Origin: Escherichia coli
GTDB taxonomy: Bacteria; Pseudomonadota; Gammaproteobacteria; Enterobacterales; Enterobacteriaceae
NCBI RefSeq assembly: GCF_003334765.1
Contig: NZ_QOWT01000069.1
Direction: 5' to 3' (one strand)
Length of the DNA: 3,673 nucleotides
Shown: positions 197-227 of the stretch, piece by piece
How positions within the stretch are numbered: the first letter of the stretch is position 1
How the letters are laid out: each line of letters starts with the position of its first letter
Notes under the pieces: model-generated
What the model saw: only the letters and a program-made list of their open reading frames with translations
The model's database searches: none
What the model was told of the DNA's origin: nothing
Translations under genes and position numbers: made by a program

Positions 197-227
197 TATG
201 CCCGATAAACAAGCGTTATCGGGCATA
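197..227. terminator. Perfect hairpin between two convergent genes (possible bidirectional terminator or mRNA 3'-end stabiliser)
   Basis: TATGCCCGATAA (197..208), loop ACAAGCG, then TTATCGGGCATA (216..227): a 12-bp perfect stem with a 7-nt loop. It starts 5 nt after the DeoR stop and ends 26 nt before the dehydratase stop on the other strand. The downstream U-tract is weak in both directions (AUACAACUUAAUGUAU on plus; none on minus), so calling it an intrinsic terminator is tentative. Confidence 0.4.

Follow-up and report, generated by a model that had tools for sequence, protein, structure and literature searches.

Here, we show that the inverted repeat at the left end of a 3,673-nt stretch of Escherichia coli DNA (hereafter, the window) is a real structure of a known and common kind. 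It is a U-tract-free, REP-like gene-end stem-loop, lying at the junction of two convergent genes in a decaying island copy of that junction. The inverted repeat, at positions 197–227, is perfect: its 12-bp arms are 100% complementary and enclose a loop of 7 nt (Table 1). As RNA, the 31-mer folds with a predicted free energy of -16.4 kcal/mol on either strand (z = -6.1 and -4.9), and none of 200 shuffled 31-mers folded as stably. The hairpin is retained on both strands when 71 nt of context are folded. Among 300 shuffled windows, none contained any perfect 12-bp inverted repeat with a loop of 3–10 nt. Hence, the original prediction of a perfect 12-bp stem-loop, located in the 62-bp gap between two convergent stop codons, is borne out on all of these counts, including the folding energy calculated for the two strands.

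Table 1. Positions of the features discussed, in window coordinates unless another locus is given.
Feature	Position	Strand	Sequence or remark
agaR' (agaR-like, DeoR family), 3' end	1–191	+	stop codon TGA at 189–191; PGAP annotation of identical genomes
Intergenic gap	192–253		62 bp between convergent stop codons
Tail after stem, garD' sense	188–196	-	GUGAAUCAC; not a U tract; read from sequence
Left arm of hairpin	197–208		TATGCCCGATAA
Loop of hairpin	209–215		ACAAGCG
Right arm of hairpin	216–227		TTATCGGGCATA
Tail after stem, agaR' sense	228–236	+	AUACAACUU; not a U tract; read from sequence
garD' (garD-like, UxaA family dehydratase pseudogene)	254–1421	-	stop codon at 254–256
K-12 prlF-yhaV junction features	L006:6855-7000 and L006:7803-7856		

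The stem begins 5 nt past the stop codon of agaR' and, on the other strand, 26 nt past that of garD'. A canonical intrinsic terminator would combine a G+C-rich stem-loop in the 3' untranslated region with U in about 5 or more of the 8 nt that directly follow it and, if bidirectional, with an A tract on the other side. The first of these is present (12 bp, -16.4 kcal/mol) and the others are not. Inspection of the sequence reveals no U tract after the stem and no A tract before it on either strand, and a consensus promoter and terminator scan makes no call at 197–227, which leads us to reject the canonical type. A search of the whole window against Rfam (E <= 1) likewise gave no match at the hairpin; its sole match is a chance miRNA at 2670–2732.

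PGAP names the gene on the left 'aga operon transcriptional regulator AgaR'. This agaR' allele encodes 274 amino acids with the C-terminus ..VGELASSL, and it is 95–98% identical to the 3' end of chromosomal E. coli agaR. The gene on the right, garD', is annotated by PGAP as a 'UxaA family hydrolase' pseudogene, one that is frameshifted, contains an internal stop and has no N-terminus. It follows that the dehydratase is dead, a condition that the original prediction had posed. Besides the internal stop, it has deletions of 11 nt and 229 bp, and the copy lacks both its 5' end and the native promoter region. The 229-bp deletion, scored relative to the island copy of strain NU14 (window about 970–975; NU14 copy L002:9971-10199), falls between two direct CCCACCACCA repeats, an arrangement characteristic of deletion by microhomology or slippage. 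What is left of garD' is a mosaic. Positions 254–640 are E. coli-like (96–97% identity), whereas positions 641–1400 are only 80–85% identical to garD of any genus sampled. Taken together, 1–191 and 254–640 show 95–98% identity to agaR and garD of E. coli, those of K-12 among them. This drop in identity therefore points to a recombination breakpoint near 640, and the mosaic implies that an E. coli junction recombined with the garD gene of another donor.

To trace the junction, we compared a 41-nt query around the hairpin with 5426 E. coli genomes, in which it occurs at 1–3 places per genome. The island type is found in about 504 genomes at >=99% identity, a second class at 87% identity in about 130 genomes, and K-12 has a third site. 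The 87% class corresponds to the ordinary chromosomal junction of convergent agaR and garD genes in a minority of strains, among them SCU-116 and the type strain ATCC 11775; both genes are intact there and lie 51 bp apart. The chromosomal hairpin reads TATGCCCGATA-aacgtgtgc-TATCGGGCATA. It is identical to the island hairpin in 11 of the 12 pairs, having lost the innermost one, and its loop has three further differences as well as a difference in length. Judged by sequence, the window derives its left end from the E. coli chromosomal agaR/garD junction, a copy of which was carried with both gene ends into the island.

The two copies of the gap have not diverged evenly. One of 24 stem positions is substituted between island and chromosome, versus 9 of 27 alignable positions in the rest of the gap, which has an 11-nt indel besides (Fisher p = 0.012). 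The coding flanks differ by 3–5%, and the stem is no less conserved than they are. This pattern is suggestive of pairing having been kept while the rest of the gap changed, in a comparison that comprises one pair of copies in a recombinant region. Among relatives of the hairpin, the loop is 7, 8 or 9 nt long; a length that varies in this way fits a constraint on pairing and does not fit a protein-binding site, in which spacing would be constant. The stem showed no variation at any location where it turned up, the metagenome sample having been preselected for the exact stem.

Other states of the same gap are more widespread. In most E. coli, in K-12 and in E. albertii, as well as in one Pseudocitrobacter genome, the prlF-yhaV toxin-antitoxin pair lies between garD and agaR. 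In this arrangement, a canonical terminator flanked by A and T tracts, aaaACATGGCcttagtGCCATGTtttt, serves garD alone. In these E. coli and in E. albertii, a different hairpin, ATGCCCGC..21 nt..GCGGGCAT, which has its outer 7 bp in common with that of the window, lies 6 nt past the agaR stop codon. Across 80 other Enterobacterales, the hairpins that follow garD are lineage-specific, most of them being canonical T-tract terminators or REPs, and they often face a convergent agaR-like gene; since these genomes have a hairpin at the same position, a gene-end hairpin can be regarded as the normal occupant of the gap. The stem of the window was found at the 3' end of garD in none of those 80 loci. 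Comparison of AgaR homologues confines the hairpin-bearing allele to E. coli. AgaR of K-12 and of all other genera ends at about 269 amino acids (..VILVGE and similar). A 5-aa C-terminal extension is seen only in the alleles that carry the hairpin, ..VGELASSL in the island and ..VGDHASSL in the ATCC 11775 type (window 172–191). Because the extension occurs only there, the hairpin junction is a derived state, produced by a rearrangement in which the stop codon that agaR originally had was overwritten.

Where might such a stem have come from? Its arms, GCCCGATAA and TTATCGGGC, match the outer stem of the REP element, GCCNGAT / ATCNGGC, and like REPs they are extragenic, at the 3' ends of genes. 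For comparison, E. coli REPs include gtagGCCGGATAAGGCG..CGCCGCATCCGGC and gtagGCCTGATAAGACGCG.., and a related enterobacterial genus has true REPs of the C:G class, GCCCGAT/ATCGGGC with a GTAG/CTAC foot (gtagGCCCGATAAGGCGTAGCCGCCATCGGGC and GCCCGATGGCGGCTACGCCTTATCGGGCctac). The window hairpin joins the GTAG-side arm, GCCCGATAA, to the CTAC-side arm, TTATCGGGC, and because these two arms are combined, two bases that are normally bulged in a REP become paired. In three respects the hairpin departs from a REP. There is no GTAG/CTAC foot at the base of the stem, where the flanks read cactat and ataatac (gtattat on the minus strand). The bulged stem with an inner GGCG/CGCC helix, seen in REP325 and the C-class REPs, is absent, the inner pairs being A/T. 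Third, a copy number in the hundreds is not approached. The 1–3 places per E. coli genome are a BLAST count, which would miss copies with unrelated loops, and the same hairpin has no match in 598 kb from the 80 other Enterobacterales. Because foot, bulged stem with inner helix, and copy number all fail, we do not file the hairpin as a REP. Instead, we read it as a low-copy, putatively REP-derived perfect palindrome, that is, a degenerate REP-type element.

The same stem does recur at a few other gene ends. Metagenome contigs were scanned for the pattern ATGCCCGATA-N7-11-TATCGGGCAT, which yielded at least 120 loci. Among the matches listed, 61 are at the junction of convergent tsr and lgoT in E. 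coli and 6 are of the island type, and these are the only two E. coli contexts. Also among the matches listed, about a dozen lie at the lgoT 3' end of another genus, with differing loops, and one lies between convergent aaeR and tldD of a species other than E. coli. That lgoT 3' end is about 83% identical to its E. coli counterpart. About 30 further singletons among the matches listed share the stem and lie in surroundings that are AT-rich or unrelated; these were taken as chance or as ordinary terminators and set aside. In K-12, the tsr/lgoT gap has the same 11-bp stem between its convergent genes (L003:2501-2532). At aaeR/tldD of an enterobacterium other than E. coli, the same-stem hairpin lies 4 nt from a Y-type REP (L206:3925-3955; also L209 and L210), and the corresponding position in E. 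coli is occupied by a decayed Z-type REP (WL297) or by an unrelated insertion. One could imagine that the ATGCCCGATA-N7-11-TATCGGGCAT hairpins form a small, unnamed subfamily of REP-derived perfect palindromes, copied as modules of about 30 bp to unrelated gene-end junctions of the Enterobacteriaceae (agaR/garD, lgoT/tsr, aaeR/tldD) without the GTAG foot that RAYT needs. We give this idea little credence at present. If true, it would mean that these elements are portable, strand-symmetric 3'-end modules, whose arms also mimic the -10 box of sigma-28 and of which one copy is bound by FliA in K-12.

What would the hairpin do when transcribed? Previous work offers a class into which it fits. Dar and Sorek showed that nearly all Rho-dependent transcripts of E. 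coli end, at steady state, just past stable stem-loops without a U tract. Such stem-loops protect against PNPase and RNase II, true termination occurs downstream, and 24% of them are REPs (PMC6061677). The window hairpin, a stable stem-loop with little U after the stem, has the structural features of this protective class. An excess of C over G downstream, a rut-like signal for loading of Rho, differs between the strands: in the first 100 nt, the C/G ratio is 1.94 on the minus strand (35 C, 18 G), and it is 1.1–1.3 on the plus strand. REPs have been described in similar terms. A model REP acts as a partly Rho-dependent terminator and as a stabilizer of mRNA, and REPs between convergent genes are associated with higher expression of both genes (bioRxiv 10.64898/2026.03.23.713779).

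Data from K-12 bear on the related junction there. In bicyclomycin experiments, Adams et al. mapped Rho-dependent regions on both strands just past the yhaV/agaR hairpin (PMC7815308, supplementary file 2). One, at 3278006(+), is antisense to agaR (Rho score 4.5, p = 5e-8); the other, at 3277444(-), is antisense to yhaV (Rho score 7.7, p = 8e-34) (PMC7815308). The complete curated Term-seq tables for K-12 from the same study list no 3' end at the yhaV/agaR hairpin or at the tsr/lgoT hairpin, and they do list ends internal to agaR. PMC12207403 lists none of these genes.

On the basis of these comparisons, we lean, by a little more than even chances, toward the view that the hairpin is a strand-symmetric stem-loop for RNA 3' ends, serving as a pause site and exonuclease barrier, with RNA polymerase released by Rho or by collisions. 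The hairpin, once transcribed, would fold with about -16 kcal/mol, alike from either strand. The folded stem-loop could pause RNA polymerase and block 3'->5' exonucleases. The steady-state 3' end of the agaR' mRNA, and of any RNA that crosses garD', would then lie just past the stem. Polymerase itself would be released farther downstream, via Rho or head-on collision; release is expected there because the hairpin has no U tract. The original prediction, that the hairpin could terminate or stabilize, thus divides into two parts: stabilization is plausible and fits the U-tract-free class (PMC6061677), whereas canonical termination, given neither a U or A tract nor a scan call, is not upheld. The companion claim, that the hairpin is shared by both transcripts, hardly applies in the window, where neither the 5' end nor the native promoter of garD' remains. 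Because garD' is dead and promoterless, only the agaR' side can matter.

The setting of the window raises the question of whether the hairpin still has any role at all. Annotation of strains 746 and NU14 places the window in a genomic island, in which sugar-acid genes are present as a decayed copy, and 24 complete E. coli genomes contain all 3673 bp at >=99.9% identity. In strain 746, an intact agaR of 274 aa on the plus strand is followed by the hairpin, the UxaA pseudogene on the minus strand, a hypothetical gene, a broken DNA-binding gene, and an IS66 tnpC remnant, beyond which lie a second copy of acnB and then citCDEFXG. Upstream of agaR are fragments of a tagatose-bisphosphate aldolase gene, malX, malY and IS100/IS66. 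In NU14, a uropathogenic strain, this module adjoins the sfa fimbrial operon. The island agaR' of NU14 is frameshifted, and the hairpin is identical even though both neighbor genes are broken.

Several additional features of the island DNA were recorded. Window positions 1571–2083, 2172–2492 and 2511–3097 are island debris, namely an intact hypothetical ORF of 170 aa, a broken DNA-binding gene and the C-terminal part of an IS66 transposase. A second perfect hairpin lies at 3235–3265, with 14-bp arms (TAGAACTCCGTCTA / TAGACGGAGTTCTA), a 3-nt loop and no clear U tract, about 70 nt past the stop codon (3335, minus strand) of an acnB-like gene. In the carrier genome, this acnB (window 3335–3673) is followed by citG-citX-citF-citE-citD-citC and a gene for an MFS transporter (L001:12335-21544), such that the locus couples aconitase B to a citrate lyase cluster beside island DNA.

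The state of the flanking genes lends some weight to the possibility that the hairpin is a decayed REP-type repeat, carried along with the junction and of no measurable effect in the island, where it lies between a dead gene and an orphan regulator. Indeed, garD' is a promoterless pseudogene, and the aldolase genes upstream of agaR' are fragments. It had been proposed that, if the dehydratase is dead, the hairpin may persist only for the sake of the regulator gene; NU14, with its frameshifted agaR' and identical hairpin, makes this explanation unnecessary. Selection need not be invoked to account for a hairpin that has stayed the same in NU14 beside two broken genes. Island copies are about 2% divergent from one another, and at that distance an unchanged 31-mer is the default outcome. 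The lack of recorded 3' ends at the related K-12 hairpins points the same way. Against such a view are the conservation of the stem between island and chromosome, with heavy substitution of loop and flanks, and the retention of the same stem at lgoT, both in E. coli and in the genus that is about 83% identical at the lgoT 3' end. Moreover, a hairpin of -16 kcal/mol that starts 5 nt past the stop codon would form in any transcript that crosses it. In the window itself, the hairpin may now be a neutral relic, a reading that we consider rather unlikely.

Another possibility is that the hairpin is a genuine bidirectional terminator, either a weak intrinsic one or the pause element of a convergent terminator driven by collisions. 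It is stable, strand-symmetric and placed between convergent genes, and canonical terminators with A and T flanks are found at the same junction in other genera. Bidirectional terminators at convergent gene pairs of E. coli have been described as unlike intrinsic ones, with hairpins that act as pause signals and collisions that end transcription, according to the passage of bioRxiv 10.1101/2022.10.23.513370 that cites Ju et al. 2019. The window hairpin, in a convergent gap and unlike an intrinsic terminator, matches that description in outline. However, neither side has a U tract or an A tract. In the window, garD' is promoterless and hence convergent traffic and collisions should be rare; furthermore, the related K-12 junction is read through on both strands, with transcription ended by Rho. 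We regard a bidirectional terminator of either sort as improbable.

It is also conceivable that the element acts as DNA, as a protein operator, as a cruciform or recombination hot spot, or as an active mobile REP recognized by a RAYT transposase. This notion has some appeal, in that the inverted repeat is perfect over 12 bp, copies with the same stem occur at three unrelated junctions (agaR/garD, lgoT and aaeR/tldD), the arms match REP arms, and the host junction is a derived rearrangement that overwrote the agaR stop codon. The spacing between the arms, however, varies (7, 8 or 9 nt), which would break a dimeric operator, and we reject the protein operator on this ground. The operator consensus of AgaR, moreover, is T-rich and the palindrome of the window does not resemble it. 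A mobile REP would need the GTAG/CTAC foot required by RAYT, which is absent, and would not be expected at only 1–3 copies per E. coli genome and none in the 598 kb from 80 other Enterobacterales. A DNA-level role of any of these kinds is thus very unlikely.

The arms also drew our attention to sigma-28 (FliA), since each carries CCCGATAA, close to the FliA -10 box GCCGATAA, and a promoter-like site here could start antisense RNAs or titrate the FliA holoenzyme. The sister hairpin at tsr/lgoT in K-12 is a weak ChIP-seq site (FAT score 3) with the motif AAAGATTAATCTCCTTATGCCCGATAAC, of which the last 14 nt equal window positions 228–215 on the minus strand; Fitzgerald et al. (2014) detected no transcript from this site (PMC4183435, Table 2). 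In the window, the segment concerned spans 215–242 on the minus strand. We built a weight matrix from 49 other FliA sites (consensus TAAAGTTT-N11-GCCGATAA; median score of the training sites, 17.1 bits). The sister hairpin scores 11.3 bits, and the arms of the window score 8.9 bits (minus strand) and 2.2 bits (plus strand). Sites of at least 8 bits occur at 0.78 per kb in the E. coli background, and the window alone has four sites of at least 8.9 bits. The -35 element matches at 4 of 8 positions and is not conserved in the chromosomal copy. With a matrix score at background level, and with even the K-12 site yielding no detected transcript, a sigma-28 promoter in the window is scarcely credible and was rejected.

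The importance of this result is small: the window offers one more instance of the U-tract-free, REP-like stem-loops found at gene ends in E. coli. Even so, the case is instructive in certain respects. It illustrates that a gene-end hairpin can travel with a recombinant gene fragment and outlive both of its neighbors. It draws attention to a stem of 10–11 bp that is common to three unrelated junctions and that resembles a class of REPs abundant in another genus. This stem provides a small, testable case of REP-type palindromes becoming single-copy gene-end structures.

Comparison with known systems helps to place the hairpin. The terminator that follows garD in K-12, aaaACATGGCcttagtGCCATGTtttt, is the counterpart in role and position, being a gene-end hairpin after garD with a stem of similar length. 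Its stem is preceded by an A tract and followed by a T tract, both of which the window hairpin lacks. The bidirectional terminators attributed to Ju et al. 2019 in the citing passage resemble it in that a hairpin lies in a short convergent gap, looks unlike an intrinsic terminator, and is proposed to pause polymerase from two sides. Their mechanism, as described there, needs transcription from both sides, whereas garD' is truncated and promoterless and the K-12 relative of the junction depends on Rho.

With REPs, the hairpin shares the outer arms GCCNGAT(AA) / (TT)ATCNGGC and an extragenic location, at the 3' ends of genes and in the gaps of convergent pairs. In addition, the same-stem copy beside a Y-type REP amounts to a paired-REP (BIME-like) arrangement. 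The window hairpin differs in having no GTAG/CTAC foot, a perfect stem of 12 bp, and 1–3 copies in place of hundreds. Closest of all, in our reading, are the protective loops without a U tract. Compared with these, the window hairpin shows only a weak excess of C over G on the strand that would be read through from agaR', one of the genes it would serve is a pseudogene, and it is known from its sequence and predicted fold. Like them, it is a stable hairpin a few nucleotides past a stop codon; its energy is in the range usual for terminators, it has no U or A tract, and C exceeds G downstream on one strand; and at the related junction of K-12, Rho terminates transcription just past the hairpin on both strands.
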